Source of the DNA: a virus
Virus record (IMG/VR): IMGVR_UViG_3300038312_000193
Length of the DNA stretch: 64,000 nt
Reading direction: 5' to 3' (one strand)
Part shown: positions 11,614-62,956 of the stretch, piece by piece
Position numbering within the stretch: the first letter of the stretch is position 1
How the letters are laid out: each line of letters opens with the position of its first letter
Program-made: the position numbers and the translations under genes
Notes under the pieces: model-generated
Databases searched by the model: none
What the model saw: only the letters and a program-made list of their open reading frames with translations
Told to the model about the DNA's origin: nothing

Positions 11614-11677
11614 ATCGTGATAAAACTTTAATTTGGTGTTGATTTTACCCCTTAGAAACGCCGAAATCTAGGCGTTT
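11614..11677. repeat. 12-6-12 palindromic site plus companion 7-8-7 palindrome next to the recombinase
   Basis: ATCGTGATAAAA-CTTTAA-TTTGGTGTTGAT, 12 bp, AAACGCC-GAAATCTA-GGCGTTT. Confidence 0.75.
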
Positions 11678-11740
11678 ATATTTTTGCAAAAATATACAAT
11701 AATTTGGAAATTTATAAAATTAGAAAGAAAGGGATGATAA

Positions 11741-11884
11741 ATGCTATTTCAAAAATTAACAGAATGGATTGAACAAAAATTGTTGGAACTTATCGATCGT
11801 TATAATGAATTTACTTATGAATGGAGTACAGGATATAAAAAATGTTTAAATGATATTTTAAAGTTTATTAAAACATTAAAATAA
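11741..11884 (+). CDS. Hypothetical 47-aa protein
   Basis: AAAGGGA RBS, open frame MLFQKLTEWIEQK.. Confidence 0.5.
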   Translation: MLFQKLTEWIEQKLLELIDRYNEFTYEWSTGYKKCLNDILKFIKTLK

Positions 11885-11995
11885 ATAGGGTAGAGAACAC
11901 TCCTTCCCCCTACCCTATTGTGTAGATAATCTAAAGGAACAATTTAGACTATCCTTATTAGATTATATCATGCAAGGAGATGATTTGCAAAGGAA

Positions 11996-12448
11996 GTGTT
12001 GTTGTTGGTAAAATCTAATGATTGTGAGCAAATAAAAATATGTGAAAAAGAATTTGATATGTTAGATGAAAAAATCAAGGTCGCGAACCACAGGCTAAAT
12101 GATCTTGAAGGGAAAGTAGATAATTTAAGTTCTATAAATGTAACTTTAGCAGAATTAAAAACTATATCTAAACAACAATTAGAAAGTAATAAGGATCGTG
12201 ATGAATTATTAAAACAACATAGTGATACATTGACTCAAATGAACACTTCTTTAATTAATATGAATCATAAATTTGAAGAGTCAGAAAAAAGTGTTTCTGA
12301 TTTAAAAGGAGAGATAAAAGAAGTTAAGAATGATGTTAAAAATATAAATAAAGATAATACTATTAAAATACCAGATATTATAAAAAATTTAATTATGATG
12401 GGGTTATCTATGGGTTTTGGAGTGTGGATTAGTTCAATATTAAAGTAA
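11996..12448 (+). CDS. Lysis-module coiled-coil protein with C-terminal TM (XhlA/holin-like)
   Basis: Long coiled coil, single C-terminal hydrophobic helix, position. Confidence 0.55.
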   Translation: MLLLVKSNDCEQIKICEKEFDMLDEKIKVANHRLNDLEGKVDNLSSINVTLAELKTISKQQLESNKDRDELLKQHSDTLTQMNTSLINMNHKFEESEKSVSDLKGEIKEVKNDVKNINKDNTIKIPDIIKNLIMMGLSMGFGVWISSILK

Positions 12449-12449
12449 G

Positions 12450-12899: not shown

Positions 12900-13823
12900 A
12901 TGGTTAGGAAAAAGAAATATACTTATGAAGAAGTGAAATATTTTATTGAAATAGAATCTAATAGTGGATGTAAATTAATTAGTGAAGAATATATAAACTC
13001 AAAAAATAAATTAGATATTAGATGTAAATGTGGAAATACATTTCCAAAATCATTTGAAAAATTTAAAATTGGTCAAAGACAATGTAATTTATGTAGTAAT
13101 AAATTAATAAATGAAAAGAAAAAATTGCCATTTATTGAGGTATTTAATTTTGTTAAAAATTGCGGATATGAATTAGTAAGTACTGAATATTATAATAATG
13201 CTACTTCAATAATTATAAAATCAAAAGAAGGGTATTTAATAAAAACTACTTTAATGAGATTGAAAGATCATAAAACTCCTAATATATTTCATAAATCAAA
13301 TCCTTATACAATACAGAATATAAAGTTATGGTGTAAATTGAATAATAAATCATTTGAATTAATTAGTAAAGAATATATTGATGCTCATAAAAAATTAAGA
13401 TGGTTATGTTTAGAAAGTAATTGTGGTAAAGAGTTTTTCGCATCTTGGGGAAAAATTTTTCAAAATCGTAATTGTCCATATTGTAATCAATCTAAAGGCG
13501 AAAAAATAATAGCAAATTATTTAATAAATAATAATATAAATTATACACCTCAAAAAGAATTTGAAAGTTTGGTAGGAATAAAAAATGGTAATCTTTCTTA
13601 TGATTTTTATTTACTAGATTATAATTTATTAATTGAATACCAAGGAGAATTTCATGATGGAAGTGCAGGAGTATATACTCGAAGAAATTTAAAACGTCAA
13701 AAAGAACATGATAGACGTAAAAAAGATTATGCGCAAAATCATAATATAAAACTATTTGAAATATGGTATTGGGATTTTGATAATATTGAAGAAATTCTAG
13801 ATGGTATTTTAATTAATAAGTAG
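12900..13823 (+). CDS. Free-standing Zn-finger PD-(D/E)XK putative homing endonuclease
   Basis: CxxC repeats; SKGE..I, YDFYL, LIEYQGEFH, IWYWDFDNIEEIL. Confidence 0.8.
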   Translation: MVRKKKYTYEEVKYFIEIESNSGCKLISEEYINSKNKLDIRCKCGNTFPKSFEKFKIGQRQCNLCSNKLINEKKKLPFIEVFNFVKNCGYELVSTEYYNNATSIIIKSKEGYLIKTTLMRLKDHKTPNIFHKSNPYTIQNIKLWCKLNNKSFELISKEYIDAHKKLRWLCLESNCGKEFFASWGKIFQNRNCPYCNQSKGEKIIANYLINNNINYTPQKEFESLVGIKNGNLSYDFYLLDYNLLIEYQGEFHDGSAGVYTRRNLKRQKEHDRRKKDYAQNHNIKLFEIWYWDFDNIEEILDGILINK

Positions 13824-15289: not shown

Positions 15290-15319
15290 AATTAGTATAA
15301 ACAAGTAATTTGTCATGAT
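15290..15319. repeat. 12-6-12 site at end of lysis module
   Basis: AATTAGTATAAA-CAAGTA-ATTTGTCATGAT. Confidence 0.5.
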
Positions 15320-15779: not shown

Positions 15780-17504
15780 TTATGCTATCATTATAGCATA
15801 TTTATTGAATTTTAATAGCCATGAGATAACGTCATCACAAGATGGTGTTATCTCATGGCAATAATTAAAAGGTTTTTCCCATTCAATTTCTAACCATAAT
15901 TTTTCAGGATTTTCTTTATCTCTATTAACAATAATTTTATTTATAAGAAGTGACACATCTATATTAGTTAATTCTCCTGTTTCAATTATATTTTCTAAAA
16001 TTTCTATGGTTTTTAATATCCCTTTTTTTGATTTATTATTAATTTCTTGAAGATTATCTATTTCATTTAATTGTTCTTCAAGTCTTAATTGAGTGGTTTT
16101 TGTGTCTTTAACTAAATCTTTAAAAATATCTTCATCAATTAAACCTTTAGCAAGTTGTTGAGAATAACTTTTAAGTTCATCTTTACATTCCGCTAATTGG
16201 ATATTAATTTTATTTTTTAAAGAATCATAATTATGTTTTTTATCAAGGTTTTCTTTAATTTTTTCATCAACCATTTTTAAAGTTTCTTTAGCAGTTTCTT
16301 TTAATTTATCAACTTGATCTAATATAGTTTTGTCAATATCTGTTTCCAAAATTTGATGTGTTTCACATTCGTTTTTACCATATCTAAAATAGGTTGAACA
16401 AATATAACATATAGGATTATCAGGATTATGACCAATATTCCTTTTAATAAATCCTTTTCCACAATTCCCACATTTCAAAATACCTGCATATTTATAAATC
16501 TTTCCATTCCCTGCTCTCACACTATTACTATTCCTTTTATTTAAAATAGTTTGTGCTAAATTAAAAGTATCTTTATCTATAATTGGTGGGAAAAAATTTT
16601 CATGAATACAATATTCAGATGGATCAGTATTTCTTCTTCCACCTTTTATCATAGTTCTTTGTGTAGTTCCGCATACTAATGTGCCTATATAACATTTGTT
16701 GGTGATTATTCTTTTTATCCCAATTTCACTCCATAAATGTTCATATTGAACATCAGTTTTAGCATTAATTCTATTAAATTTTTGTTTCTTATATAAAGAT
16801 GGAGTAATAACATTTTTTTCATTTAAATGATTTGCTATCTTTCTAAAACCATATCCATTGATATATAAATCAAATATTAGTTTAATTATCCATTCTACTT
16901 CTTCATCAATTATCCACTTATATTTGTCGTTTTCATTAGGATTTTTTATATATCCGAAAGATGGCACAATTACTAAACCGTCCTTTCTTTGTTTGGTTTT
17001 TATAGCACTTCTAATTTTTTTGCTTATATCCTTTATATAAAGTTCATTATACCATGTCTTAATTCCTATAATAGATTCATTTTGATCGTTTTTAGTATCT
17101 ACTGAATCATTGATTGCTATTAATCTTTTTTCATGAGATATAATCCATTCCAAAAATAATAAAGTTAAAGCATTATGTCTTCCAATTCTTGATAAGTCTT
17201 TTGCTATAATACCATATGCTTCGCTGTTTTCTAGTTTATCTTTAATAAGATTAAATCCAGGTCTATCAAACTTATAACCAGTAAAATTATCATCGATAAA
17301 TATACCTTTTAATTCTACTTGATTTATAACTGCCCAATCTTGAATTAAATCAATTTGAGTATTAATAGAATCTTTTTTAACATTGTCTTCATCTCTTGAA
17401 AGTCTAACATAACCATAAAAGACGCCAAGATATTTATTATTGGGTGTAGAAGGTTTAATATTACATTCAATATAATTTGAATTGATTTGCTCTTTTGTTG
17501 CCAT
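15780..17504 (-). CDS. Large serine recombinase (phage integrase)
   Basis: YVRLS catalytic motif, DRPGF, DLSRIGR, recombinase domain, Zn ribbon CGNC..YIC..C, coiled coil; AGAGGAG RBS favours ATG 17504. Confidence 0.95.
   Translation of the reverse strand: MATKEQINSNYIECNIKPSTPNNKYLGVFYGYVRLSRDEDNVKKDSINTQIDLIQDWAVINQVELKGIFIDDNFTGYKFDRPGFNLIKDKLENSEAYGIIAKDLSRIGRHNALTLLFLEWIISHEKRLIAINDSVDTKNDQNESIIGIKTWYNELYIKDISKKIRSAIKTKQRKDGLVIVPSFGYIKNPNENDKYKWIIDEEVEWIIKLIFDLYINGYGFRKIANHLNEKNVITPSLYKKQKFNRINAKTDVQYEHLWSEIGIKRIITNKCYIGTLVCGTTQRTMIKGGRRNTDPSEYCIHENFFPPIIDKDTFNLAQTILNKRNSNSVRAGNGKIYKYAGILKCGNCGKGFIKRNIGHNPDNPICYICSTYFRYGKNECETHQILETDIDKTILDQVDKLKETAKETLKMVDEKIKENLDKKHNYDSLKNKINIQLAECKDELKSYSQQLAKGLIDEDIFKDLVKDTKTTQLRLEEQLNEIDNLQEINNKSKKGILKTIEILENIIETGELTNIDVSLLINKIIVNRDKENPEKLWLEIEWEKPFNYCHEITPSCDDVISWLLKFNKYAIMIA
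15818..15859. repeat. 42-bp inverted repeat, candidate attP inside the integrase 3' end
   Basis: GCCATGAGATAAC-GTCATCACAAGATGGT-GTTATCTCATGGC. Confidence 0.6.
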
Positions 17505-17528
17505 ACATTCAACTCCTCTAATAGATAA

Positions 17529-17561
17529 ATGAGATAACACATAATTTATGTTATCTCATGG
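17529..17561. repeat. Second copy of the integrase inverted repeat upstream of its RBS
   Basis: ATGAGATAAC-ACATAATTTAT-GTTATCTCAT. Confidence 0.65.
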
Positions 17562-22167: not shown

Positions 22168-22197
22168 ATCAACACCAAATGTCTCTTTGGAACACAG
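22168..22197. repeat. 12-6-12 site abutting the TnpB right end
   Basis: ATCAACACCAAA-TGTCTC-TTTGGAACACAG. Confidence 0.75.
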
Positions 22198-22320
22198 TTG
22201 AAAAACTTTTCCTATTAAACCCAATAGGCTACCAGTCATTAACTAGGTTGTGTCCCGCAACATCTACTACTTCAACTACTTAAACTTATGCTATCCGTAG
22301 ATACTTTAAATTATTATATT
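22177..22320 (-). ncRNA. Putative TnpB omegaRNA (scaffold ending ..TTTTTCAAC, then guide)
   Basis: Non-coding 3' of tnpB with CCTATTGGGTTTAATAGG hairpin and IS200/605-type TCAA(C) end; 5' boundary uncertain. Confidence 0.6.
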
Positions 22321-23485
22321 TAGTAACTTTATATTGTGAGTTGTCGTTAAGAATATTAATTGCTCCATTAACATCTCTATGCATTATATAACCACAATTA
22401 CATTGATAATTTCTACCTTTTGGTGAATTTAAATTTCCACAACAAGGACACCTCTTGGAAGTCCAATATTCTTTAACTTTGATTAATTTAATATTACTTC
22501 TAATTAATTTATTTTCTAATTGTAACATTATCAATCCATAACACCATTGACTTAATTTTTGTCGAGTTTTTCTACTACCCCTCCCTTCTATTTTAGTATT
22601 TCTAGTACAATCATCTAAATCTCCGTAATAAACAATAGAAATATTATTTTGTAAACAATAATCTAAATAAAGCTTAGTGGTTTTATGTACTGCATCTAAG
22701 ATTTTATTATCAGTATCATATTTTAAATTTTGCATTGCTTTACTATATTTTTTATACTGTTTACTTCCTTTAATGCATTTGCTTTGTCTACTTCTTAATT
22801 TAGCTAACTCTTTATTTCTAAGTCTTTTTATACTTCTAATCTTTCTACCAGTAATTATAATTACATTCCCATTATTATCAATTGAAGTTATACTATGTAT
22901 TTCACCTAAATCTATAGCTGATTCATTATTGGATTGAATTAAATGTTGTTTATTTTCTTCTTTATATTTAATAGCTAGTTTTAAACCATTACGATAAACC
23001 AATTCAATCTCTACAATATTATTAGGAATGTTTTTTAGATGGCATTTAATAGGTTTTTGTCTTCTTTGTTCCTTTTGTTTATTTAATATCATTGGTTTTG
23101 CTAGAGTTAAATATTTTTCATCTTTATATATTTTAATATTTTGATATGTCCAACCAGTATTAAAAAATTTCTTTTCTTTATATGGTAGTTTAACTTTATT
23201 ACTATTTTCGTGTTTTGCCATTATTGATTTCCACATTGCATCCCTAGCAGTAACATATTTTATAATTACAAAATTAATACTATTTGCTAATAATATTGGA
23301 ACAGATTTTTTCATCATAAACTGCAATTCAGATTGAGTAAGAGATTTATTAAATTTCTTACGATTTTTTTGATCTGCTTTAACACAAGCATTCCATACTT
23401 TTGCTGAATATTTGTTACATTTCATAAGATAATCATAATCTTTTTTATTACAATTTACTGGCACTATTAATGTTTTATAAAGTAT
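22286..23485 (-). CDS. tnpB: Solo TnpB RNA-guided endonuclease (IS200/IS605 family, IS1341-like, no tnpA)
   Basis: AIDLG (RuvC-I), EYWTSKRCPCCG/CNCG Zn finger, HRDVNGAINI (RuvC-III); probable ATA start at 23485 after GGAGG. Confidence 0.92.
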   Translation of the reverse strand: MLYKTLIVPVNCNKKDYDYLMKCNKYSAKVWNACVKADQKNRKKFNKSLTQSELQFMMKKSVPILLANSINFVIIKYVTARDAMWKSIMAKHENSNKVKLPYKEKKFFNTGWTYQNIKIYKDEKYLTLAKPMILNKQKEQRRQKPIKCHLKNIPNNIVEIELVYRNGLKLAIKYKEENKQHLIQSNNESAIDLGEIHSITSIDNNGNVIIITGRKIRSIKRLRNKELAKLRSRQSKCIKGSKQYKKYSKAMQNLKYDTDNKILDAVHKTTKLYLDYCLQNNISIVYYGDLDDCTRNTKIEGRGSRKTRQKLSQWCYGLIMLQLENKLIRSNIKLIKVKEYWTSKRCPCCGNLNSPKGRNYQCNCGYIMHRDVNGAINILNDNSQYKVTKYNNLKYLRIA

Positions 23486-23517
23486 AATTAACCTCCTTCC
23501 TTATTGTTTTAAATAAT

Positions 23518-23581
23518 ATCAACACCAAACAAACCTTCTGTCATGATTTCATGTTTCACAAACGCCTATTTCTAGGCATTC
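23518..23581. repeat. 12-6-12 site plus companion upstream of tnpB
   Basis: ATCAACACCAAA-CAAACC-TTCTGTCATGAT, 12 bp, AAACGCC-TATTTCTA-GGCATTC. Confidence 0.75.
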
Positions 23582-28530: not shown

Positions 28531-28860
28531 GCTAATACCTCATTTCAATTTGTTTAGTTTAATTTTATTATAAGTATTAACATGTTATGTTGTAAATAAA
28601 CAAATTAATAATTAGGTTTATTTCACTCTATATAAAGTAAAAATTTTATTTTAATCATAATCTGGCACACATAATTCATTATCTCTAGTTAATTTTTTAT
28701 TTAACCATTTTTGATAATAATCTACTGGACATTTATATTTATCATCAAGACAAGGACAATCAGGATGATTATTTTTATATACAAAAGGACAACTATTTCT
28801 ACAAAAATCACTTATTAAACTCATTTTTAACCTCCAATCAATATTTTAACAAAACAGATA

Positions 28861-29121: not shown

Positions 29122-29243
29122 CTAAACAAAATATATAAGTTCCTTGATATGTATCTTTGTTATGTGGTTTTCGTGTATAATATTTTTTATTAATTTTTAA
29201 TGTCATTTTATTTTTCCTTTTCTATTATAATCAAACCAAGATT

Positions 29244-29919: not shown

Positions 29920-29925
29920 AGTAAT

Positions 29926-29954: not shown

Positions 29955-29977
29955 GTATTTTTATTTTATAGTTTTAA

Positions 29978-45079: not shown

Positions 45080-45119
45080 ATGTAACAATATACCTCCCAA
45101 TTTTATTTTATATTTTTTA

Positions 45120-45818: not shown

Positions 45819-45840
45819 TATATCTCTTCCTTAACTATCT

Positions 45841-46113
45841 TTAATCCTCTTCTTCAGTTTCCTTAACTAACTTCAAACTACCTTCGCTAATCACAACAAT
45901 AGGCCAGATTTCTTCGTAATTTTGATTAATTGGAACTAACTGGATTTTCAACTTTTCATTTTTTCCGTTTAATTTAGTCACGAAACCTTGCTTAACTTCT
46001 CCTGTAGATTCAATAGTGAATTCAATTTTATTTCCTTCGCTAATTGTAAGCAATTCTCCCTCATCATCTACTATAACAATAGACTTATATGGGTTAGTAT
46101 CGATTTCTACCAT
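45841..46113 (-). CDS. Hypothetical protein
   Basis: GGAGG RBS; first ORF after promoter. Confidence 0.6.
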   Translation of the reverse strand: MVEIDTNPYKSIVIVDDEGELLTISEGNKIEFTIESTGEVKQGFVTKLNGKNEKLKIQLVPINQNYEEIWPIVVISEGSLKLVKETEEED

Positions 46114-46253
46114 ATATATTATTTCCTCCTTTCTTCTAAATTTTCAACATTTACTTATTTTAAAATAAATTCTTATATATGAATTTATATAAGACAAAAT
46201 TAACCAAATCATGATCCAATCCTTTGATCTATGTTGTTTGCTTTTATATTTAT

Positions 46254-46282
46254 ATTATACATTTAATATAATGATTTGGCAA
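46254..46282 (-). promoter_or_regulatory. sigmaA promoter of the replication operon
   Basis: TTGCCA-17 bp-TATAAT. Confidence 0.7.
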
Positions 46283-46290
46283 GTAAAATT

Positions 46291-48177: not shown

Positions 48178-48203
48178 AACTTCCTCCTTTCGTTTGTATA
48201 TTT

Positions 48204-48232
48204 ATTTTATACTTTTAATAAAAATTTGTCAA
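48204..48232 (-). promoter_or_regulatory. sigmaA promoter of ligA
   Basis: TTGACA-17 bp-TAAAAT. Confidence 0.7.
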
Positions 48233-48270
48233 GCATTTAATTTCATGACCAAAAACTAGGTTGGTTTTAA

Positions 48271-48822
48271 CTATGATAAACCAGCAAACTTGCCATAATA
48301 TTTTTGTCTTGCTTCTTCTGCAATCCTTCCAGCTTCATTAACATCATCAAAATAACCTATTATTATTCGTTTATTATTTCGACACAATGACACTTGCCAT
48401 TTTTCTCTTTGAGAATTCCAAAATACATTTCTATAACCACTTTTATTATTAGAATTTTTGCTTTTACGATTCTGATTATTATTAGGATGTAATGTTACTC
48501 TTAAATTAGATTCTCTATTATTTAATCCATTGTGATCTTTATGGTCTACTCGTATATGTTTCTCAGTAGCATCTGTTAAAAATCTATGTATAGAGATTGT
48601 TTTTGGATGTTCTCCAGATGGATACACCATTGTACGAACATAATATGTTTGTGATCCCTTATCCCATTGAGCATTCCATCTATATCCTGCTTTAATAAGT
48701 TTATCTAATTTTTCTAAATCTACAAAACATTCAAGAATTTTATTCTTATGCTCAATAAATAATACAATATCTTCACCACGTATTTCATAATTATTAAATC
48801 CTTTAAAATATCCCTTTGCTAT
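48271..48822 (-). CDS. HNH-AP2 homing endonuclease (probable ATA start)
   Basis: IHRF, VDHKDHNGLNNRESNLR, NKSGYRNV..KWQV; frame open to ATA 48822 after GAAGGTG. Confidence 0.85.
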   Translation of the reverse strand: MAKGYFKGFNNYEIRGEDIVLFIEHKNKILECFVDLEKLDKLIKAGYRWNAQWDKGSQTYYVRTMVYPSGEHPKTISIHRFLTDATEKHIRVDHKDHNGLNNRESNLRVTLHPNNNQNRKSKNSNNKSGYRNVFWNSQREKWQVSLCRNNKRIIIGYFDDVNEAGRIAEEARQKYYGKFAGLS

Positions 48823-48878
48823 ATTATCACCTTCTTTATATTTTTATTTTAATAACATTACCAAAGACGCATTTGGAT

Positions 48879-49112
48879 TTATTTTATAACATTCATATTT
48901 TTATCAATATCATATTTTTTACTTTCTTCATAAGTAATTTCAAATTCAACCACTTCGGCATTTAAATATTTCTCACAATCTTCAAACATGTTTAAATGAC
49001 CATTAACATTACCAAAAGTTGACCATGCATGACCGTTTTTACTCCAACCACCATACATACCTTTATTAGCATATAAACCTGTTTCTTTATCTCTTATTTT
49101 ATAAACCTTCAA
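48879..49112 (-). CDS. Hypothetical protein
   Basis: GGAGGTG RBS; bounded by sites. Confidence 0.6.
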   Translation of the reverse strand: MKVYKIRDKETGLYANKGMYGGWSKNGHAWSTFGNVNGHLNMFEDCEKYLNAEVVEFEITYEESKKYDIDKNMNVIK

Positions 49113-49198
49113 TAAATTTCACCTCCTATAAATACCAATATAACGACTTTTCTGTTTTAACCAAATCAGACTTTTATAATGATTTTGTTCCTATTTGT

Positions 49199-49882: not shown

Positions 49883-49974
49883 GTTTTTGACTCTCCTTTC
49901 TATAACTTTTAATCAAACAAAAATTTGGTGTTGTTTTTGTAATTTATAAATGCCATTATTTCGGACTTTGTATT

Positions 49975-50739
49975 TTATACTATTAATCTGTTTTTTGCAA
50001 TTTCACAATATTTTTCTTCCAATTCGATGCCAATACATTTTCTTTTTAAATTCCTTGATGCTAATAATGTTGTACCAGAACCGCAAGTGAAATCTAAAAT
50101 AAGTTCGTTTTCTTTTGTGTATGTATTAATTAAATATTCTATAAGAGGCACTGGTTTTTGTGTTGGATGTAAACCACTTTCAGAATTAAATTCTAAAATA
50201 TTATTCGGATAATTTGTATATTTTTGAGTATAATCATTTTGTCTGCTTGGACGTTCTTCAATTGTAGTCCCTTTTCTTGATTTGCCTTTATTGCTTTTTT
50301 GTTTATTAATTTCTATTAACCCTTGAGGATAATATTTCATCATGTTTTTACTGCCATTTGCTATGTTTCCAAAACTAAAACACATTACATCTTCATATTT
50401 TTTCATTGGACTATTTTTAGCATTTAGAAAATTACCTACTTTTGATTTAATCCATTTATAATCATATTTATAAAGTTTTTCATTGCTCAATCTTAAATGA
50501 CTACTAAATGGTTCTGTGCCAAATAAACAAATACATCCATCGTCTACTATTAAATTTTCAAGTCTATCCCATATTTCTTTATAATTAATTACACTATCCC
50601 ATTTACATGCTGTAGTCCCATAAGGTGGATCAGTGATTATTGCATCAAATTTTATACCCTTCTCAATAATCTTATCCATCACTTCTAAACAATCACCTTG
50701 AAATAGTCTTATGTATTCATCTTTATAGTATAATTGCAT
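49975..50739 (-). CDS. N6A/N4C DNA methyltransferase (beta class)
   Basis: GDCL, DPPYG, HPTQKP, DFTCGSGTT. Confidence 0.93.
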   Translation of the reverse strand: MQLYYKDEYIRLFQGDCLEVMDKIIEKGIKFDAIITDPPYGTTACKWDSVINYKEIWDRLENLIVDDGCICLFGTEPFSSHLRLSNEKLYKYDYKWIKSKVGNFLNAKNSPMKKYEDVMCFSFGNIANGSKNMMKYYPQGLIEINKQKSNKGKSRKGTTIEERPSRQNDYTQKYTNYPNNILEFNSESGLHPTQKPVPLIEYLINTYTKENELILDFTCGSGTTLLASRNLKRKCIGIELEEKYCEIAKNRLIV

Positions 50740-51346: not shown

Positions 51347-51438
51347 TTTTATATTATTGTTTTATTATGACTTGTGACAAAACCGAAGTTTTGTGTTGAT
51401 TTTTGGATTTATAAAGCCCAATATTACGGGATTCTTGT

Positions 51439-52182
51439 TTAAGCAATTTTGTGATTTTTGACTCTTTCTAAAGATAAATTATAATATTCTTCATCTGTTT
51501 CAAATCCTATGTAATTTCTTTTGGTATTTAAACAAGCTATCGCTGTTGTACCAGAACCCATACAATTATCTAAAACTAATTCATTTTCATTTGTGTATGT
51601 ATTAATTAAGTATTCAAATAATTCCACTGGTTTTTGAGTAGGATGAACTTTTTCTTTCTGATTTGCGTTACCGATTTCAATAATGCTTGTTGGATAGTAT
51701 TCATCATATATTTCTTTTTCTTTAGGTTGATTTATAGTGCCATAACAATCACTTAAAGAATAAAGTTTTCCACCTTTACTTCTCTGTTTTCCTTTTCTCA
51801 TAATTGGATTATATGTAGGCATTTTTTTATAAAAACATAATATTAATTCATGTCTTCTTAAAGGTTGTCTTTTGGCATTTAAAAAACCTGTTGATAATTT
51901 TTTATCCCATATTAAATCATATTTAAATAATTTATTATTACTATTAATTAATTTAGTTGCAAATGGTTGTGTAGCAGTAAAACACATCATCCCATTATCT
52001 TTTATAATTCTTTCATACTGCTCCCATAATGGTTCAAATGGAATTATCTCATCCCATTTATTTCTTGCCGTAACCCCATACGGCAAATCACATAAGATCA
52101 TATCAATACTTTTATCTGGTATTAAACACATACCATTTTCTTTAATACAATCTTCATTATAAATAGTATTCAATTCAATCAA
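51439..52182 (-). CDS. N6A/N4C DNA methyltransferase (beta class)
   Basis: CDLPYG, HPTQKP, DNCMGSGTT. Confidence 0.92.
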   Translation of the reverse strand: MIELNTIYNEDCIKENGMCLIPDKSIDMILCDLPYGVTARNKWDEIIPFEPLWEQYERIIKDNGMMCFTATQPFATKLINSNNKLFKYDLIWDKKLSTGFLNAKRQPLRRHELILCFYKKMPTYNPIMRKGKQRSKGGKLYSLSDCYGTINQPKEKEIYDEYYPTSIIEIGNANQKEKVHPTQKPVELFEYLINTYTNENELVLDNCMGSGTTAIACLNTKRNYIGFETDEEYYNLSLERVKNHKIA

Positions 52183-52491
52183 TTTATGTATTATTATCCT
52201 CCTTATTTTTATTTTATGCTTTTAATAGTTTTTTTTCAGAAAATCATGCCTCACAAACGCCCAAATTTCGGACTTCATTTCTGCACCAAATAGAGAATTT
52301 ATCAACACTCCTCTTTAAATGCCTCGTAACACCCTTTTGTATATTCAATTATTTCCATGTCTTCACAATCATTACAATTAAGACTACAAGAGTATTGCCC
52401 ATCTGTGATTTCTTCTACGTCAGCACACCAACTGCCGTATGTATTACACCATTTAGCCATATTTACCTCCAATCATTATGAAACATAGTTT

Positions 52492-52908
52492 TTATGCTGA
52501 TATTTCTTTTCTTACTCTCATAAGAATTTTGCCCAACATATTCTTACCTCTACCCCTGCACACTCCCCAATATATATCATTCCATGTGTTTCCTTCTATT
52601 AACTCCTCATTACCAGTATCAACAAGTCTTTGTCTTAAATCTTGGTTACGAGTAAACTTATCCTTAACACATTGATACATCACTTCGTCTTTAATATCTT
52701 CCCAATCATTTCTAAGTAAAACATTTCTACCTTTCTTCTTTGCTGTTGAAGGGTCAAGTTGGCAAAATTGTTTTCTACGTTCTATATCTTTTACTTTAGC
52801 AGATTGAAAAGCAGCTTCATTATTTTGGTAAAGTAAATCTTCAAATATTACTGGTGCAGAATAAAAATTACTAAGAAAATAATATTTGCCTTTAAATTCA
52901 TTAATCAT
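52492..52908 (-). CDS. NADAR (YbiA-like) family hydrolase
   Basis: FLSNFY, EAAFQSAK, KKKGR, KF..N..L...L..TG, D.YWG, G.N.LGKILM.VR. Confidence 0.92.
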   Translation of the reverse strand: MINEFKGKYYFLSNFYSAPVIFEDLLYQNNEAAFQSAKVKDIERRKQFCQLDPSTAKKKGRNVLLRNDWEDIKDEVMYQCVKDKFTRNQDLRQRLVDTGNEELIEGNTWNDIYWGVCRGRGKNMLGKILMRVRKEISA

Positions 52909-53033
52909 ATTTATAACCTTCCTTTTAAATCGTGATCAACCTCAAATTTTATTCAAATATTTATCTATATATTGTGCCATCAATTGTTTTATGTCAGAAT
53001 ATATAGTATACTAATCTTTTTATTTTGAGTAAT

Positions 53034-54761
53034 TTATATTATTTTTTGTAGTTTCTCCATATATCCCCTATTAACTATTATTATATTATTATCAAAATTT
53101 AGATGATAAAGTTTAAATCCATTGTAATCATAAATATTGGTTATAACTGCTTTAACATTATTATAATTAATTTCTTTTATGTAATCTCCAATAATGTGTT
53201 GTACTTTAATCTTATTTATAATGAATATATCTCCAATTTCATATTCTTCTCTATCCCATAGTAACTTTCTATCTTCAGGAGAAGCAAAATCTAAATATCC
53301 ATTAAAAGTTCTTCCGTATATTTTATTAATTTTTATTTTACGCCATTCACAATATAAATTATCATCAAAATTCATAAGATCACAATAAGTCTCTTTTAGA
53401 GAATCATTTTTATTACCAATAGCTAAAATATCTCTATTATTATAATTAACCGTATAATATTTTCCATCATCCATTTCTAAAAGATATCCCGCTTTAATAT
53501 CATCTATATTGTACATACCTTTCTCCTTTCTTAACCAATTCGATTTTTGGTTTTAATTTTATAGATTACCAATATTTTATTTCCCCATTTTTTCTTACCT
53601 ACTATTTTTATATTATTTTTTAGTTATAAGTTCTTTTTTTAATCTTTCTACTTCTTCTTCAACAATCATAATAATACATGGTTCACTATCTTCATCATTG
53701 TTAAACTTAACTAATTCCAATTCTTTACCGTTATATTCATTACCATAGATTTTATACATAACCAAATAATCTCCATCATCACAAAGAATTTTATGACTAT
53801 TAGAAAATCTCTTTTTACATTCTTCGTATGTCATATTAATATATCTCCTTTATTTAATTCTCCTGTACAATATTATTATAATCAGTTTCAACGACACATT
53901 TTTCATCAACTCTAATTTGTACTAAATTACATTCACTATCCGCACCTACCACCTTACCTTTAACCCCTTTTAGGATACCATTTAAAATTGTTGCTTCTTG
54001 ATTGACTTTTACAGCCATTATTAATCCTCCTTTACATAATTGTATTTTTTATTTTCTTCTCTTAACGGACACCAATCTGGACTAGATTTTTTATAAACAT
54101 TCATTGGAATAGTTAATGCATCTAAAAAATCATCATCAAAAGTATTACCGTAAGTATCATAATCTGGGACAACATATTCACATACATATAAATATCCGTT
54201 TAAACCGTAATCCTCACAGTTTTCACAGGTCTTGCATTTTGGTGTTTTCATAATATATCATCCTTATTTATTTCTTTATGCTCTTTTTTAAACATATAAT
54301 ATTCATGCTTATTTCCGTCAAATAAAACTCTTTTACAATTTTTACAAGTAAGTTTATAATAGCCTGATTCATAAAAATATTCATCAGGCTCGACACGAAA
54401 TTCTTCTTTCAAATTTTTACAACTACATTTTTTATTATTCTTCATCTTCTATTTCTCCATCTTCCCCTCTAACATTCTTTTTTACAGCTTCCCATAATAA
54501 ATCACATAATTCTATTTGATTATTAGTTAATCGTGCCTCACCCGTTTCAAATAATAATGCTATAGAACATCCATAATCTTCATCTAAAATGATCTGTATA
54601 GGAATATCTTGTGAATAATTATCTCTTAAATATTCTAACATTTCTCCAATAGTAAACAGTTTTCTTTTGGTAATATTAGAATTAGTATCCCATTGCTTTA
54701 AAAATACTTTTTCTTTATAATTCAATTCATCCCATTGTTCTTTTGTAATTTGTTGTTTCAT
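53034..54761 (-). other. Hypothetical CDS cluster (53034-53516, 53613-53834, 54021-54251, 54248-54445, 54435-54761)
   Basis: ORF track, RBSs. Confidence 0.6.
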
Positions 54762-54806
54762 ATTAATTCCTTTTTAATTCATTTTTCTAATAACTTTCAT
54801 ATGTAA

Positions 54807-55165
54807 TATAGAAAGTAATAGTTACCCGAAATACCTACTACTTTCTATAACCGTACCAACCAATACGGATTAGTCTTTTGACAGCAGGGACACGATATTG
54901 TGTTTACTGTTTTTGCTCGACCACAACTATCACTTTCGGGGAGTAATGGTTGAGTTTGATGTTTGATCCACCCTCAGTCTCCGTCAAGGAAACCTACTTC
55001 CCCCTCTTAGTTATAAGAGTCCCCAGATTTTTAGTTTTGTCTGCTTCCCACCCTTTATTCAGACCATGATTGAAATAACAGAGTTTTTTGAATCTCAATC
55101 ATCCCGTATATAATTCCACTACTTTTAATAGAATTTTTTAGCCACTCTGTCATTAGCTAAGTAGT
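54807..55165 (-). ncRNA. Candidate ~360-nt structured non-coding RNA
   Basis: ORF-free, GC-elevated, many hairpins, G-U pairs favour the minus strand, complementary loops CCCGAAA/TTTCGGG. Confidence 0.65.
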
Positions 55166-55271
55166 TTCATTATATACACTCACCAAATTAACTTATAATA
55201 AAATAAAATAAGTATATCAAACTTTATTATGTATTTTTATTATAATTTTTTATATTATAGTTTTAATATAT

Positions 55272-55418
55272 TTAACTAATCTTATTAATTCCATAAAATA
55301 TTACATTAATAATTGCAAAACCAATATTAAGTACCGTTCCACAAATATTTTCTTTTGCCGCAAAATAAGCTGCTAATAGTATACATGCGACTATTAATAT
55401 TAAACTTATAGTAGACAT
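55272..55418 (-). CDS. 48-aa hydrophobic two-helix peptide (not in ORF track)
   Basis: MSTISLILIVACILLAAYFAAKENICGTVLNIGFAIINVIFYG..; GGAGGGGG RBS. Confidence 0.65.
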   Translation of the reverse strand: MSTISLILIVACILLAAYFAAKENICGTVLNIGFAIINVIFYGINKIS

Positions 55419-55500: not shown

Positions 55501-55599
55501 TATTTATTTTTTGCTTTTAATGAAAGTTTTTTATAAAATTCATAGTTCAAGAATCCCAATATTTAGGCATCCATTTCATGATAGAACTAGAATTTTATG

Positions 55600-58500
55600 T
55601 TAATCTTCATTTTCAATATTTATATTAATAAATATTTCATCCTTTACTATTTCTACTTCTTGACCAACATTATGATATTCTGATTCTCCCAACCATTTTA
55701 TTCCTATGTATGATACAGACTTATTATTTCTCATAAAATCAATATGAGTAATGTCACTATATTTATTAACTCTTTCATATTCTGGTTTATTCTTAATTAT
55801 TAATTTTGCTTGCGTTGCACTTTTGTCCAATTCAAAACCGTCATTTTTTCGATAACAAATATTATTTATAAATAATCTTTCTTTAATATCTCCTAACCAT
55901 ATAAATCTAACATCACTCATCGGAACTTGTATTACTTCACAATTTTCAAAAACTATATCAATTCTATCTATTTGTTTTCCCATTACTTCTCCTTTCTAAA
56001 ATCAACACCAAATTGATGATTTATTATATTATTTATTTTGGTAATATAGACATTAATACATTTCTTAAATCTATATTGTCTATTTCTTTTCCAGTTTCAA
56101 CTTCTCTAATAGATAAATTATCTTGTATATCTAAATTTCCTTGAAAAGTAACTATTTTACCTAATTCAGTTTCCCAAACTAATCCTAGAATTTTCTCATG
56201 GTCTACAATAACATACATTGGTTTACTTTCTCTCATATTAACTCCTTTCTTTAATCACTACCAAAGTGATATTCTATTTAATAAAGTGATCCATTTTTTA
56301 TTGATCTCCCAATAATATAACTTATTATTATAACAACTATAGGAACAACATATTTAGGGAATGTAACACAACCTATTATGACCCCTATTATTATACTGAT
56401 TATTAAACCTATTAGTATTAATCCTATTAAACCTAACAATACTGTCACAAGGATATCTAATAAAATATCTTTCAAAATAAAATAATTTCCTTTCTTTAAA
56501 GTTTGAATGAAACGTAGATTTGGTAACGAAATATTATCGTATTTCATAATGTACGCAATATGTAATTCCTTTAACACAACATTCATCTTCTTTATGTTCA
56601 TCAATATATTCACAATCAGAGCAATTCTTTTTCTTATAACATGAATTACATAAACATAATTTAACGCACATATCTTACCTCCAAATTATTATAGAATACA
56701 GTATTGAATTGATTTTATTATTTATATCTTTCATAGTCTTTATCTGTCATTAACTCATATGAAAAATCATTTAATTCACCATATCCTTTTTCTACACATT
56801 CATCTATATGTAAAACACAATCCTCTTCGGAATCAAATCTGTCAGACCATAATTCTCCATTTAATAAGACTTTCCACTCCACAACATCTTCATATTTATA
56901 TCTACTCATATTAATCCTTTCTTAAATATTGTTTTAAAACATTCATTTGGTTTTAACTTTCTACTTTTACCCAAAACCCATCTGCAAAATTTTCTTCAAC
57001 TTCCTTGATAGAATAATTTACATTTTCTTCTATCTCTCCATCTTCTACCCAAGTAATTATATATTTATTATCTTTCATTATTAAATTATATAGGTGATTT
57101 TCAGTAGGAAATTTTTCTATTAAATCTTGACTTAATCTAAATTTTACTTGCAAATTTAAACTCCTTTCTAATATTTAATCCAAAACTAGATTCTGATTAA
57201 ACTCTAATAAATCTATCAAGATATTTTTTCATGACTTCTTCAGTCTTATTAACTTTAATTACTTCATCTATATATTTGTTACAATCTTTACACATATATG
57301 GACTTACATGATTTTTGATATCAGATAATGCCCAAGCATAACCAAGCCTTAAAACACTTTCAAATTGCTTTGTAGGAAACATGTCATTAAATAAGTTTGT
57401 TACTTCTTGATTAATTGGATTTTCTTTACGTCTAAATTCCATAATTTCTTCAATTCTATTTAAGTAATCTTTATCATTAGTCATATGTATTTCCTTTCTT
57501 TATTTTAATAATTTTATAAAAGAGAAATTTGGTTGAAATTAATCTAAAACTTGTTTAATCGTATGTGTTAACCCAACGCCTAATAAAAATAAACAATAGG
57601 CTATTGTAATAATAACAAGGGTAGGTTTATCAAAAACGAACATCATGATAAAACCAATTGGAGCTAAAATGCACAAAGGAACCCCAATAATATAAGGCAA
57701 CAAAGATAAAAAACGATCCATAATTCTCCTTTCTATATTGAGTTAAAAGGGTTATTTGATTACGATTCTAATCCCAACCTTCAGTAACATCTAATACCTC
57801 ACCGCATTCACATTCAACTTTGACGACATCATCTAATCCAGTAGGAATAAACGTATAACTCAATCTTACACCCGTAACGTCACCACGTTTACTTGCATTG
57901 CATTTATGACCAGTTTCAGCATTATCCCATTGTTTAATTTTTTCTATTTGGGTATCACTTAATTCAAATACTCTCATAACTGCCTCCCTTCACTCGTTAT
58001 AAAATCGGGGTTTTAATCTATTAATTGTTTAATTATTTCTTCTTTATCTTTTTTAGATAACTTATCACTTTCTTTTAACAATCCTAAAGCATCTTCTTTA
58101 TGTTCTAGTAGATATTTTTTAATATATTTCGATTTCATTTGTTTGATATAATTAAATTCATTCCATACCTTTTTAATAAAAGGATAAATCTTATCTAAAA
58201 AATCATCGTTATCTATAAGATGTATATATTCCAGAATAAAATTACCAATACTATTATTTTTTAATCCTGTCAATTTGGCATAATCAATATTATCTAATAT
58301 AATTTTTACTTCATTTTCATTTAAATTTTGATATTTATAAATATTTGCAAAATTATTTCCATGCGTTTCAGTCATTTTTTGTCCCATTAATTTAAGATAC
58401 TTTTCTGTTTTTAATAATGGATTTCTCAATACATATTGCCAAGGTATTTCCGAATAATTTTTATTACATTGCTCTTTAACGGATTTCAAAGAACTACTAC

Positions 58501-60538
58501 TCCAAAAATGCAAATTATATTGAAAGAAATTCCCATTGCAATTATAATGATTTCTCATAGTATCAAAAAAGATATCTAATTCTTCTTCATTCCAATCTAT
58601 AGGCAATCTAAAATTATTAATATCTTTTGGTCTTTTTATATTAAGAATATTAAACATTTCAATAATTTCATTTTTGTGTGAATAATATTCTGTTAATACC
58701 CTTAACCATAATGGAGTTTCTTCTGTTGACCAAGATTCTTCATAATCTTTTTCATAAACAACCGCAAGGAATTTAGTGAAATTATCTTTATTAATATTGT
58801 TTGAGATTAAATCAATGAATAGAGAATTTTTACACTTTTCATTCGATAATTTAACTTCCTCTTTTAATTGCCTTGCTTCATTTCGTAATTTTTGATTTTC
58901 TTCTCTTAGTTGAATATTGTTGTTTTTAATATCATCAATTTCGCTTTGAACTGATGCTAAAAGGATAGTTTTACATTTCTCTCTATACTCTATAAACAAT
59001 TCATCTAAAGGCGTTGGCTCATAAATCTGCTCATCATAATATTCATTATATCCATACATTTTTTACTTCCTCCTATATTTATTTTTATAACATTATAAAA
59101 GCTGGATTTGGTATTAATCTTGCTCACCACAAAATCCTTTAACCAACCACTTAAAAGTAGCATACAATTCTTCTAATGATTCAAATTCACTATTAATATT
59201 TAATCCCCTGGTAAACACATCATATATATCTACTTGCTTATTAAGACTATATCCCTGGTTAATCATCCACCCTGTTAAATTATCAAATAAGTGTTTAATA
59301 TATGTCTTCTCTCCATCATGCCCATTTGTAAATTCATACACTGTTTCAATACTTATGGAATACATTTTACTTTCTTTATTATAAGTAATATCAATGTCAT
59401 TCATTGTATATAGATTTGCTTCACTATAAGACGGATCGTTTGCTGATTTGATTCCCCAAATAAATTTATATGTATCTTCGTATTTTTCATATTCTTTAGA
59501 ATATTGATGTTTATTCCATAGTGATTTTAATTTACGAAACATATTATTCTCCTTTATTATTATATTATACATTTAATGTAAAATCAAACATTTATAACGA
59601 TTTTATATACTAATTAGTGTAAGATTTACTTCCATATCATTTTGATAAATATCAATATTTCTTTGTAAAGATTCTTGTAACTGTTTTATTTCATTTTTTA
59701 TTCTTATATCTTTTTCTTTGAATGTTTTATCACCAATCTTTATATTTCCTAATTTTCTTAGTAGTTGAATAATTCATACTTCCTCCTTCTTAATTTGTAG
59801 CATCTGTATTTTTTGGTTTCCTACTTTTCTTTTTCTCTTTACTACTCTCATATACCGATTTCAATAATTGCCCTACATATGTATTAGTACCCTCATAAAA
59901 TATAATCACTTCGGCCTTTTCTTGTTTGTTTAAAGTTTCAAATTCTACAATAAGATGTTGTATTGCTTGCTCTACATTGTTACATATAAGTAGAATGTCA
60001 TCAGAATTCAAACCGATTATATTTGATTTACGTTTCAATATGTATACTCCTTTCTATATATTTATATTATAATTTTAATACAATGTTTGAATAAAATCAA
60101 TAGTTGGTCATATTATTTATTGCAGTTTTAATATTCCTGTTTGCATTTCTTCTAACATAATTATGTATTTATATTTTTCATCTATAATTTCACTTATATT
60201 GCATTCTTTATCTGAATCTTTATGAAAACTAATACCATCTAAATTGCAGGTTTTATAACTTTCTCGATAATCATGACTAATACAATATCCGCATTTGCTT
60301 TTAACACATTTCATTATCAACCCTCCTTTATTTTTACATATTGATTCTTTTATATTAATATTATTGACTCTTCTTTAGATATTGTTAATTTTCCATCTTT
60401 ATCAATATGAATATAACAATCTTCTTTAGGTTCAAGATATATATCACCATTTGCATAATGAATAATAGTAATATTTTCAGCTTCAATAGTTAATTTATTT
60501 TCATCTATTGTAAACATCGAATTATTAATCACAATCAA
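55600..60538 (-). other. Array of about 14 small hypothetical CDS, mostly one per pair of sites (includes 58013-59059, 348 aa)
   Basis: ORF track; most have an RBS and end at or in a palindromic site. Confidence 0.7.
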
Positions 60539-60550
60539 ACCTCCATTTCA

Positions 60551-60925
60551 TTAAGATGCTTTTATCAAACTTTTATGATAATCTTTTAAAAATTGTGGCG
60601 TTTGCATTGTTGTATATCCGACCATTTCTTTTATGATTTTTCTTTTAGATTTAAACGTCATAAGAATATTATTATGTTTTTTATGATACCCCTTACGACC
60701 TAGTATACAATTACATCTATAACAACAAGTTGCTAAATTATATTCGTTATTATTTCCTCCTTTACTTTTAGGAATTATATGATCTAATGTCGCAATATTA
60801 TTAGGCATAGGAGTATTTTTATTGGGATAATATACTATTACCTGTTCACCACAATACAAACAAGTAAAATTATCTCTCTCATATAATTTTATATGATTCA
60901 AATTATCACCTACTTTCATTAGCAA
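60551..60925 (-). CDS. HNH endonuclease
   Basis: RDNFTCLYCG, TLDHIIPKSKGG.N...NL..CC..CN. Confidence 0.88.
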   Translation of the reverse strand: MLMKVGDNLNHIKLYERDNFTCLYCGEQVIVYYPNKNTPMPNNIATLDHIIPKSKGGNNNEYNLATCCYRCNCILGRKGYHKKHNNILMTFKSKRKIIKEMVGYTTMQTPQFLKDYHKSLIKAS

Positions 60926-60944
60926 ATGATGTTTTGGTTATGAT

Positions 60945-62956
60945 TTATCTTCTATATTTAATTCTTATATAAGGCCAAAATAAATCAACTACCCAACCAT
61001 ATATTCTAAGATAAATCTTTTGCCACCATTTTAAATGAAAATTTTCAATATAAAAATATTTCATTTTTCCTCTTGTTGTATTGCTCGAATATATTGATTC
61101 AATTTTACTACCATTTTTAAATTCAATTTTCATAATGCCTCCAAATCTACATTTCATAAAAATCTGATAACATAATATATAAAATCAAAGCATTTCTTTT
61201 GCCAATCTTAGATTCACAATAAGAGATTTTTTCTTCTGGATTAATCCTAACATTAAATTCTACAATAATATTTCTGAATTGTTCCATAAAATTATTAATA
61301 ATTTCATTTCCATCTTCATCGCGACATAATCTACAAATCAATATCCTTAAATATGCACCTGCTTTATCTCCGTCTATTGGTATAACACTATTATAAGCAT
61401 TTTTCAAAAATGTATCATAGGCAATGTAAGATTCTATTGTAAGTTTAACATAATCCTCTATTGGTATTTGATAAACATTTGCTACAGAAGAAGACCTGTA
61501 AAATATTTTTAAAATATCTTCATATGAAATTATTCCTTTAAACCCTGGATATTTTTTAAATTCTTGTTCTACTACGTTGTATAAAACATTGACTGCTACA
61601 TCAAAGTTTTCAATATTTGTATCACATTCTTTCAAATACACTTAATCACCATCCTCCTTTCATTCATTATGAAATGTCTATTTGATTATTACTTTTCATT
61701 TTCTAATTGTGTTATAAAATTCATCATTGCCTTAATAGATAATAAAGCACCTTTCCGAGCCTCAATTGGTATAACATCATTCTTTTTCTTTTGTCCATCA
61801 ATTAATTTTTGTTTTTCTTTTTTAAGGTAATCCAAAACCGCTTTTCTACTTATTAAATCATTATCCATTTTTATACCTCCATTACTTTTAATAGAATACC
61901 GATATTATTCAAATTACTCAATATAAATTGTTAATGAATTATCAATAACTTCAAGTTTTTTAACTATCGCTTCAACATAACTATTCGCTAAATTATCTAA
62001 GGTTTCAAACTCGGCAAATGATCCATATTTCTCACTCTGGAGATAAATTCTAGCATTACTATCTGTACAATATACCTTTGAAATATCCTTTACTTTCATT
62101 TTTAAAATCCTCCTTTTAAAAATCATTATCAAATATAAGTTTCGTTTAATCTATTAACTTATATTTAAAAACAATCTCACGTTTTCCACCACACATATCA
62201 TCAAGTATTTGTTGCATTTTTTTAACTAATTGCTCTCCTGTCATAACTGGTTCATGCGGTAAAGTTTTAGCTATTTTAGGAACTTCGATATATACAACAT
62301 TACAATCAGTCCACTTTTTTATTTTAACGCCCATTTGCTCCCATGCCCCTAACATCCCTTTAACTATTAATTCATTCATAAAAATTACCTTCTTTCTTAG
62401 ATAAGTTAATCTATAGGGAGAAGCGGAATATTCTCGTCAGAATATTTTCACTACCACTTCTCCCACATGTCAAAAAGGTTGATGGACTCAGTAGTTAGCC
62501 CATCTAGCTAACATATAAAAATCAAATGCTAATTCTATATTAACATAAATTATCTATATCTTAATATCAATAATACCACACTCAGCATCATTGTCAACAT
62601 ATTTATTTTATATTTTTAATTAAAAATGAGGATAGAACTTCTTCTTATCCTCTATCTTTATGCCAATGGATTACAACTTCTCTACATTCATCAAAAGTAT
62701 TAAACATTAATCCATATTTTAATGAATTATAAGAAACGTATAAATCACAATTATCTTTTATACATTGCTCTAATCCACAACGTTTTTTAAAACAAGTAAT
62801 ATAAAAATGGTAATTACCATTTGGTATGTGAAAAATAAAACTTACCAACCCTGTTTCTCTATTTTTATGTTGCCAAGTTTCATATACTTTTCTTTTTTTA
62901 ATTTTTTGAAATTTCACTTTGTCATTCTCCACTCTTATTAAATATGTATTAGGCAT
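60945..62956 (-). other. Further small hypothetical CDS (60945-61157, 61147-61641, 61914-62132, 62146-62379, 62645-62956)
   Basis: ORF track. Confidence 0.6.
62570..62597 (-). promoter_or_regulatory. sigmaA promoter with extended -10, heading the accessory array
   Basis: TTGACA-16 bp-TATTAT with TG at the extended -10 position. Confidence 0.7.

Follow-up and report, generated by a model that had tools for sequence, protein, structure and literature searches.

The dif sites on which Xer recombinases act consist of two 11-bp (base pair) arms around a 6-bp centre and are cleaved at the ends of that centre; in single-recombinase systems the xer gene lies beside its site, and non-homologous centres block strand exchange (PMC8371274; PMC5357621). 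A repeated element of similar architecture is described here from a stretch of 64,000 nucleotides (nt) of the virus record IMGVR_UViG_3300038312_000193 (IMG/VR), the whole of which is referred to as the window. The element is a dyad of 30 bp, in which two inverted 12-bp arms enclose a 6-bp centre, and copies of it stand between accessory genes of the phage. By comparison of near-identical contigs the dyads are shown to be places at which closely related phages have, as far as alignments can tell, exchanged genes, with crossovers at the edges of the centre.

The dyads were detected by scoring a half-site matrix, TTTGGTnnTGAT, as an inverted pair. Copies of at least 12 bits were counted as confirmed and copies of 9.5–12 bits as weak. 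An initial expectation-maximisation motif search on the intergenic DNA gave the ribosome-binding site only; k-mer enrichment and a seeded matrix then succeeded. At a spacer of 6 bp, 27 dyads of at least 12 bits were found in the window, compared with 0, 2, 1 and 2 at spacers of 4, 5, 7 and 8 bp, respectively, a contrast that is partly the result of fitting because the matrix was trained on the spacer-6 sites of this window. Block-wise dinucleotide shuffles gave 1.2 dyads on average and 5 at most. In five relatives that were not seen in matrix training, 21, 15, 14, 15 and 13 dyads were obtained with the 6-bp spacer and 0–2 with the other spacings. The half-site TTTGGTNNTGAT, when at most one mismatch was allowed, was matched 33 times, against 10.9 ± 3.3 in shuffled sequence (threefold).

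An earlier annotation made from the letters of the window without database searches (the sequence-only reading) had proposed the palindrome as a recombination site and had named enrichment over a shuffled background as a check; with the dyad matrix this enrichment is very strong, and it is repeated in the relatives. The loose core given there (YMRAA-N6-TTYKR) is also enriched (36 matches versus 19.7 ± 4.7 in shuffles), but about half of what it finds by itself is noise. In the window 27 sites are confirmed and six more are present as weaker copies, and the three examples that the reading quoted (27811, 48854 and 60915) were found exactly where it had put them. Three positions were removed from its list: 28626 is plain AT-rich DNA, 62626 is a perfect hairpin of different sequence, and at about 46209 the window has no dyad, the IMG/VR relative L002 having one at the equivalent place. 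The confirmed members start at 11614, 22168, 23518, 27811, 28843 and 29735, with a further 21 between 48242 and 63028. A search of IMG/VR with the perfect 20-base palindrome pattern returned no exact match.

The relation between the two arms was assessed on 80 unique sites, taken from the relatives as well as from the window. Left and right arms fit one consensus, each independently of the other: 6.96 positions per site are complementary between the arms, compared with 7.16 after random re-pairing (p = 0.91). The best-conserved bases are the inner AAA and TTT, which flank the centre. Arms without covariation point to a protein dimer on duplex DNA and not to a hairpin, and, judged by their arms and spacing, the dyads are double-stranded protein-binding sites of Xer/dif geometry.

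The placement of the sites is also as the sequence-only reading had described it, that is, at the stop codon of one gene and just before the ribosome-binding site of the next. Of the 31 minus-strand copies, 20 have a left arm that overlaps the stop codon upstream or directly adjoins it (−18 to +2), and the next start codon usually follows 11–65 nt downstream of the site. No site was found in 1–11613 or in 29765–48241, the latter containing the replication block.

Relatives of the phage were collected by exact-protein look-ups, which yielded many contigs of fermentation and other metagenomes, including N40 (139 kb) and N2755 (17 kb). When relatives were sought by way of the recombinase described below, the GTDB genomes gave one unrelated match and IMG/VR gave none. 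The relatives are 97–100% identical to the window across long stretches, yet they carry different small genes. Breakpoints were taken from 14 partly overlapping contigs of near-identical relatives by using high-scoring segment pairs of at least 97% identity; the ends of homology were refined to the last identical base and duplicates were merged, which left 68 distinct ends. For 32 of these the distance to a site centre is at most 16 nt, and the DNA so close to a centre makes up 3.5% of the sequence. The centre is on the shared side in 31 of these 32 site breakpoints (binomial p = 1.5e-8). Shared sequence sets in at the AAA on the inner side of the left arm; it stops either directly behind the centre, with TTT or TTTG still included, or where the right arm ends. 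The breakpoints from these comparisons map to the centre ± 3–7 nt, a position compatible with strand exchange at both ends of the centre. Cassettes with a centre of their own, or crossovers anywhere in the arms, would leave the centre unshared in one class of breakpoints; this was seen once (61663). The sequence-only reading had suggested that breakpoints among related phages be compared with the 6-bp spacers, and the breakpoints among near-identical relatives do fall on the sites, at either edge of the spacer.

The centres were then compared between genomes. Within any one genome, no centre was found repeated or in reverse complement. Between genomes, 16 pairs of sites have an equal centre and neither arm in common, where 1.5 such pairs were expected. 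The order of the centres, which is collinear in the window and in five or more relatives, is GGATTG, CTTATA, TGTAGA, ACATCA, TGGAGG, TATTGA, TCCAGC, TAACCC, TTTCTC, TGAATG, TCTACG, CATCAA, TTCTAG, AATCGA, TTTGAG, ACTATG, CTTCGG, TTTTTG, GTCTGA, TGCGTC and CTAGTT; the gene families in between differ, and some exchanged segments carry extra internal addresses. In these alignments a centre acts like a lasting label for its position. With centres that are unique and kept in order, the exchange resembles replacement between genomes at fixed addresses. The earlier claim that the small accessory genes are exchangeable cassettes is accordingly upheld in one part, by the enrichment of the sites and by breakpoints at their centres, and not in another, namely the hopping of free cassettes in the manner of integrons or pdif modules.

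The confirmed and weak copies are as follows (score in bits; arms and centres of relatives are mentioned where they bear on the exchange).

11614-11643, centre CTTTAA (plus strand): best-scoring site, 25.1 bits, 47 bp after the stop codon of the recombinase gene; L036 and N40, whose recombinases are 83% and 97% identical, have the same centre with different arms behind the gene
15290-15319, centre CAAGTA: decayed site after the holin gene, under the threshold here; the N40 orthologue has 20.4 bits and an identical centre
22168-22197, centre GAGACA (gene orientation): 16.3 bits, downstream of the TnpB cassette; L004, which is without TnpB, has a site with this centre and other arms
23518-23547, centre GGTTTG: 23.9 bits, upstream of TnpB
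27811-27840, centre CAATAA: 23.4 bits
28843-28872, centre TATCTG: 19.2 bits
29224-29253, centre TCTTGG: weak site, 11.6 bits
29735-29764, centre TTGGAA: 22.8 bits, adjoining a terminator-like hairpin
48242-48271, centre CTAGTT: 20.5 bits, equal centre at the equal place in N40
48854-48883, centre TGCGTC: 19.5 bits; N40 is identical from the centre through the right arm into the downstream DNA and differs in the left arm and upstream DNA
49154-49183, centre GTCTGA: 21.2 bits; N40 homology stops just past the centre and TTT
49906-49935, centre TTTTTG: 19.9 bits, three arm combinations with this centre
51371-51400, centre CTTCGG: 20.8 bits; L029 homology stops at the centre
52279-52308, centre TCTCTA: weak site, 10.6 bits, found at the equivalent place in four relatives
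52472-52501, centre ACTATG: 20.2 bits; N40 homology begins at the inner left arm
52929-52958, centre TTTGAG: 17.2 bits, five arm combinations; homology begins here in some relatives and stops here in others
53528-53557, centre AATCGA: 19.0 bits
55575-55604, centre TTCTAG: 13.6 bits, one left arm with five right arms among the relatives
56001-56030, centre CATCAA: 17.8 bits; L024 homology begins at the outer edge of the left arm, N2755 homology resumes a few bases upstream
56254-56283, centre TATCAC: weak site, 11.4 bits; L012 homology stops after the centre and TTTG
56501-56530, centre TCTACG: 16.4 bits, within a called open reading frame of 111 amino acids (aa) with a GTG start
56928-56957, centre TGAATG: 16.5 bits, centre with other arms in N40
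57510-57539, centre TTTCTC: 15.4 bits, one left arm with three right arms
57737-57766, centre TAACCC: 17.9 bits
57993-58022, centre CCCCGA: weak site, 11.2 bits; L017 homology stops inside the right arm
59089-59118, centre TCCAGC: 20.3 bits, two left and three right arms with this centre
60085-60114, centre TATTGA: 14.4 bits, centre with other arms in L012
60528-60557, centre TGGAGG: 20.1 bits, one left arm with three right arms
60915-60944, centre ACATCA: 21.5 bits
61134-61163, centre TGTAGA: 13.5 bits; N40 homology stops after the centre and TT
61663-61692, centre TAGACA: weak site, 11.3 bits
62122-62151, centre CTTATA: 17.8 bits
62999-63028, centre GGATTG: 13.9 bits, in the last codons of a 131-aa gene; present at the equivalent place in N40, N2755 and L029

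Two of the intervals are of interest for their content. At 22168–23547 a lone TnpB gene and its RNA scaffold form one unit between the dyads GGTTTG and GAGACA, and the scaffold terminates directly at the left arm of the downstream dyad (GAGACA). The 419-nt gap between two dyads at 28825–29243 contains an interrupted, ATG-started reading frame after a ribosome-binding site (28873–29223), which is possibly a decayed cassette gene.

A candidate for the enzyme is encoded immediately before the best-scoring site.

10587-11567, plus strand: XerA/XerD-like tyrosine recombinase, 326 aa, with the Pfam domains Phage_integrase (3.5e-40) and SAM_1

The protein was assigned to the NCBIfam family recomb_XerA_Arch (225.7 bits; cut-off 220), followed by the XerC and XerD models. 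Among the PDB entries it matches XerA (4a8e, 4e-37) and XerD (1a0p, 6e-32), and R, K, HxxR, H and Y are all aligned; the recombinase noticed in the sequence-only reading is hence intact and has kept every catalytic residue. Relatives of it at 74–97% identity are found on other contigs. In N40 the Xer-like gene is retained at 97% identity together with a different lysogeny module: N40 has a different tyrosine-type integrase and an excisionase-like gene at the lysogeny position, and the window has a serine integrase. This swapped module corresponds to 15780–17540 in the window and to L037:13755–15523, the 139-kb relative carrying a 382-aa tyrosine integrase and an HTH_17 gene. Given its retention despite a different integrase, the Xer-like gene is not the lysogeny integrase. 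From its family and its position we infer that the 326-aa protein binds and cuts the dyads.

The dyads are accordingly proposed to be the core sites of a phage-borne, single-recombinase, Xer-type system of site-specific recombination. Dimers of the XerA/XerD-like recombinase (10587–11567) would bind both 12-bp arms, and two sites on different phage genomes, either of co-infecting phages or of a phage and a resident prophage, would be brought into synapsis. Strands would then be exchanged at the edges of the 6-bp centre, and identical centres would be needed for completion. Since each centre within a genome is different, sites of the same genome should not recombine with each other and genes should not be deleted; recombination would be restricted to the matching centre in a relative. 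Two crossovers would replace everything between two addresses by the version of the relative and would keep the order of genes, and the exchange would leave intact both the stop codons, which lie in the left arm or ahead of it, and the ribosome-binding sites, which follow the right arm. Both the requirement for centre identity and the timing of the exchange are inferences. This is the most economical mechanism for the dyads, the crossovers at their centres and the persistent labels taken together, and recombinase-mediated, centre-matched replacement of cassettes between co-occurring phages is regarded as probable. For the wider description the scales are evenly balanced: a natural recombinase-mediated cassette exchange, in which a XerA-like enzyme would serve dozens of mutually incompatible sites and the pan-genome would be an ordered graph with addresses as nodes, accessory genes being swapped in register and their order kept. 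The cargo swapped in such an exchange would include methyltransferases, NADAR, the TnpB unit and perhaps, between CTTTAA and CAAGTA, the lysis module.

Several observations weigh against recombinase-mediated replacement. About half of the breakpoints (36 of 68) are off the called sites, inside genes or at a terminator-like hairpin; 12 of these lie in genes between diverged alleles, 12 in genes beside unrelated DNA and 12 at gene edges, and those at gene edges include several sub-threshold sites as well as a cluster at the end of the terminator-like hairpin. A clean mosaic junction near 20079 has no site. Variable neighbours were found at 10 of the 29 junctions with a site and at 3 of the 21 without, which is the expected direction but not significant (p = 0.19). 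At site 61663, the single exception among the site breakpoints, N40 has an equal right arm and gene behind a different centre. The putative pairing of enzyme and site is drawn from adjacency, family and geometry only, and the protein at work could also be a Xer enzyme of the host or some other dimeric protein. Part of the contigs were assembled from metagenomes, and in these the long-range linkage of cassettes could be chimeric, and such linkage was not relied on; assembly chimeras were rejected as the source of the junctions themselves because a 30-bp site with a unique centre is far shorter than assembler k-mers. Finally, identity over about 12 nt (AAA, centre and TTT) could in principle support rare exchange independent of any recombinase.

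This last point leads to the main rival, a regulatory dyad that serves as a crossover point by short homology. The sites would be operators or other regulatory or architectural sites of a dimeric DNA-binding protein, maybe the Xer-like protein acting as a binder only; crossovers would arise by rare short-homology or illegitimate exchange at the core of about 12 nt, and selection would retain only products in which the site and the two genes are preserved. Any dimeric binder would suit the geometry of the dyad and its independent arms, and a sigma-70-like promoter directly precedes several sites (48242, for instance, and the one in the leader of the replication operon in L002). An exchange of this kind leaves two things unexplained: that the centre, the part that varies most from site to site, is on the shared side in nearly every site breakpoint, and that it persists when both arms and the flanks have changed. 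A stretch of 12 nt is, moreover, very short for homologous recombination. It would be unusual for operators to stand singly at the gene junctions within operons and mostly to lack a promoter, and the recombinase retains the residues for catalysis. The operator explanation is judged unlikely.

The main alternative named by the sequence-only reading was narrower, in that the dyads would be the equivalents of SPBRE, the operators of a master repressor of the MrpR/YopR/SroF family. A gene of this family does reach the right edge of the window.

63800-64000, minus strand: C-terminal part of a gene of the MrpR/YopR family that runs off the window edge, recognised by homology to the gene of the relatives; not thought to act on the dyads

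The fragment taken alone matches no Pfam family. The relatives encode a true MrpR homologue of 339–343 aa just upstream of the genes that are found in the window at 63414–63803 (129 aa) and 62993–63388 (131 aa); it matches the YopR structures 9rd5 and 8a0a, and the L009 protein (3859–4890) matches MrpR_N_CB (8e-14). In SPbeta, about ten promoters carry a repeated element to which MrpR binds (PMC10516654). SroF/MrpR is reported to be without the catalytic tyrosine and to bind as a monomer, not as a dimer, to a long box of 24–26 bp, which is read almost base by base (10.1101/2025.11.27.690993); a symmetric 12-6-12 dyad with a variable centre is a poor fit to such a box, the dyads occupy about 30 gene junctions and not about ten promoters, and crossovers at the centre are not predicted. 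In spite of the MrpR homologue at the window edge, this alternative is thought very improbable.

That the palindromes act as hairpins in RNA or single-stranded DNA, be it as cistron processing sites, as folded sites like attC or as weak terminators, is scarcely credible: the sites do lie between stop codon and next ribosome-binding site on the transcribed strand, and two compressed copies (56001 and 56254) can still fold, but the reading was rejected on the non-covarying arms and on an Rfam scan of the window that returned nothing, the stems would be AT-rich and often mismatched, and the centre, as a loop, should not persist.

Two other repeated elements accompany the dyads. The first is a short hairpin containing G+C (of the type AATCCCA...TGGGATT), which in several gaps lies 12–15 nt from a dyad.

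11650-11680, plus strand: hairpin repeat near a dyad
29775-29805, minus strand: hairpin repeat near a dyad
49940-49975, minus strand: hairpin repeat near a dyad
51405-51440, minus strand: hairpin repeat near a dyad
52250-52285, minus strand: hairpin repeat near a dyad
55545-55580, minus strand: hairpin repeat near a dyad

Compensating changes in the stem between the window and L036 (AAACGCC/GGCGTTT and AAATCCC/GGGATTT) show that this repeat is a genuine stem-loop, which probably acts as a terminator or attenuator; at its 3′ edge, ends of homology are clustered. The other repeat, ATTAAAAnTATAAAATAAAnAT, is often followed by a TTGACA...TATAAT-like promoter and occurs on the minus strand at about 29920–29980, 48185–48235 and 62570–62630, and in other gaps. 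It may be an UP-element or an extended −10 early-promoter cassette.

The window has a G+C content of 26%; late genes are on the plus strand up to about 15.3 kb, and everything beyond is on the minus strand. An SPbeta-like phage is indicated by the Pfam assignments of the window proteins, which comprise a tail protein with YOMG_N, NrdD and a RecD2-like helicase; PolIII alpha (34483–37578), primase, helicase, NAD ligase and TnpB were also assigned. A large serine recombinase (15780–17540) adjoins a tRNA-Leu. Isolated phages are only distantly related. The nearest polymerase is that of Clostridium phage c-st (55.7% identity), and a megablast search of the replication block against isolated phages gave no match. 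In c-st the block for replication and nucleotide metabolism (31580–74675; L039) is collinear with the window, with neither the dyad array nor the Xer-like gene present. When 43 kb of c-st were scanned, the dyad was not enriched (1 site, equal to other spacings), and the c-st record offers only a tyrosine recombinase of 24% identity. With neither dyad enrichment nor a close recombinase in c-st, the system is not general to this phage group.

Some features outside the array were also recorded. The gene at 4979–5977 (minus strand) has a Cu_amine_oxidN1 domain and a G+C content of 43%, lies on the opposite strand within a tail block of 26–30% G+C, and looks like a recent foreign insertion. A 307-aa gene at 12900–13823, with a weak match to a treble-clef zinc finger (DUF4379, under the Pfam cut-off), is missing from L004 and L005, which are otherwise 99.7% identical, and has a 76%-identical stretch in common with the 430-aa gene at 33173–34465; it is probably a free-standing mobile gene of the endonuclease type. 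Two long gene-free gaps on the minus strand, 54762–55326 (565 nt) and 62380–62644 (265 nt), are G+C-rich, apparently structured and located behind promoters; neither has an Rfam match.

Why the joints of phage mosaics fall between genes is an old question, usually answered by selection after random illegitimate exchange or by short conserved linkers. If centre-matched replacement is true, it would add a dedicated enzymatic mechanism for the ordered exchange of modules, explain the fast turnover of anti-defence and accessory genes in a 130-kb phage that stays collinear, and provide dozens of orthogonal recombination sites for one recombinase. No published description of such a natural system was found among the papers searched; the closest are pdif modules, integrons, the PeSLs of T4-type phages and heterospecific lox sites as used in the laboratory.

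Among the known systems, archaeal XerA/dif, XerS/difSL and XerH/difH have the same inverted arms of about 11–12 bp, A-rich inner ends and a 6-bp centre. As in single-recombinase Xer/dif, one recombinase of the family is encoded beside a site (here 11614), an arrangement kept in N40 and L036. Xer/dif, by contrast, has one site per replicon for the resolution of dimers, whereas here about 30 or more sites with different centres are spread over 64 kb, stand at gene junctions and bear the comparative signature of gene replacement.

The pdif (dif) modules of Acinetobacter plasmids resemble the array in that Xer-type sites flank small modules of accessory genes (PMC7399989, PMC9455709). They differ in their distinct XerC and XerD arms, host enzymes, plasmid location and occurrence in different places; the dyads have a phage-encoded recombinase and collinear addresses, and the single consensus shared by both of their arms argues against membership in the pdif group. 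Integrons (IntI, attI and attC), which have also been reported in phages (PMC9892861), share with the array the units of one or few genes between sites of a tyrosine recombinase and a cargo rich in accessory and anti-defence genes. An attC site works as a single strand folded by pairing of its arms, recombination with attI is open to every attC, and cassettes are excised as circles; these features were not seen here. The 326-aa protein scores 93.8 bits with the integron-integrase model TIGR02249 (cut-off 265), and the main array lies at least 37 kb from the recombinase gene and on the other strand, a layout different from that of integrons, in which attI is beside the integrase. With this score and with arms that do not covary, the array was not classed as an integron.

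In T4-type phages, the intergenic PeSL repeats likewise mark gain, loss and replacement of small genes in plastic regions (PMC2839356, PMC4122927). These are promoter and stem-loop repeats, thought to recombine mutually by homology and to give deletions and mini-circles; the dyads, in contrast, are of the recombinase type, with unique centres, arms that are only partly alike and no hairpin covariation. The MrpR/YopR/SroF proteins and SPBRE of SPbeta and phi3T have in common with the present case a similar phage lineage, a protein of recombinase fold and a repeated intergenic element, and differ in a repressor that is catalytically dead and monomeric and that acts on a long asymmetric box at about ten promoters. 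Heterospecific lox/FRT cassette exchange is a laboratory method that uses sites with equal arms and different centres, of which only those with matching centres recombine, so that replacement is ordered. There, as is proposed for the dyads, the partner of a site is set by the centre; the lox/FRT scheme, unlike the array described here, is an engineered design.

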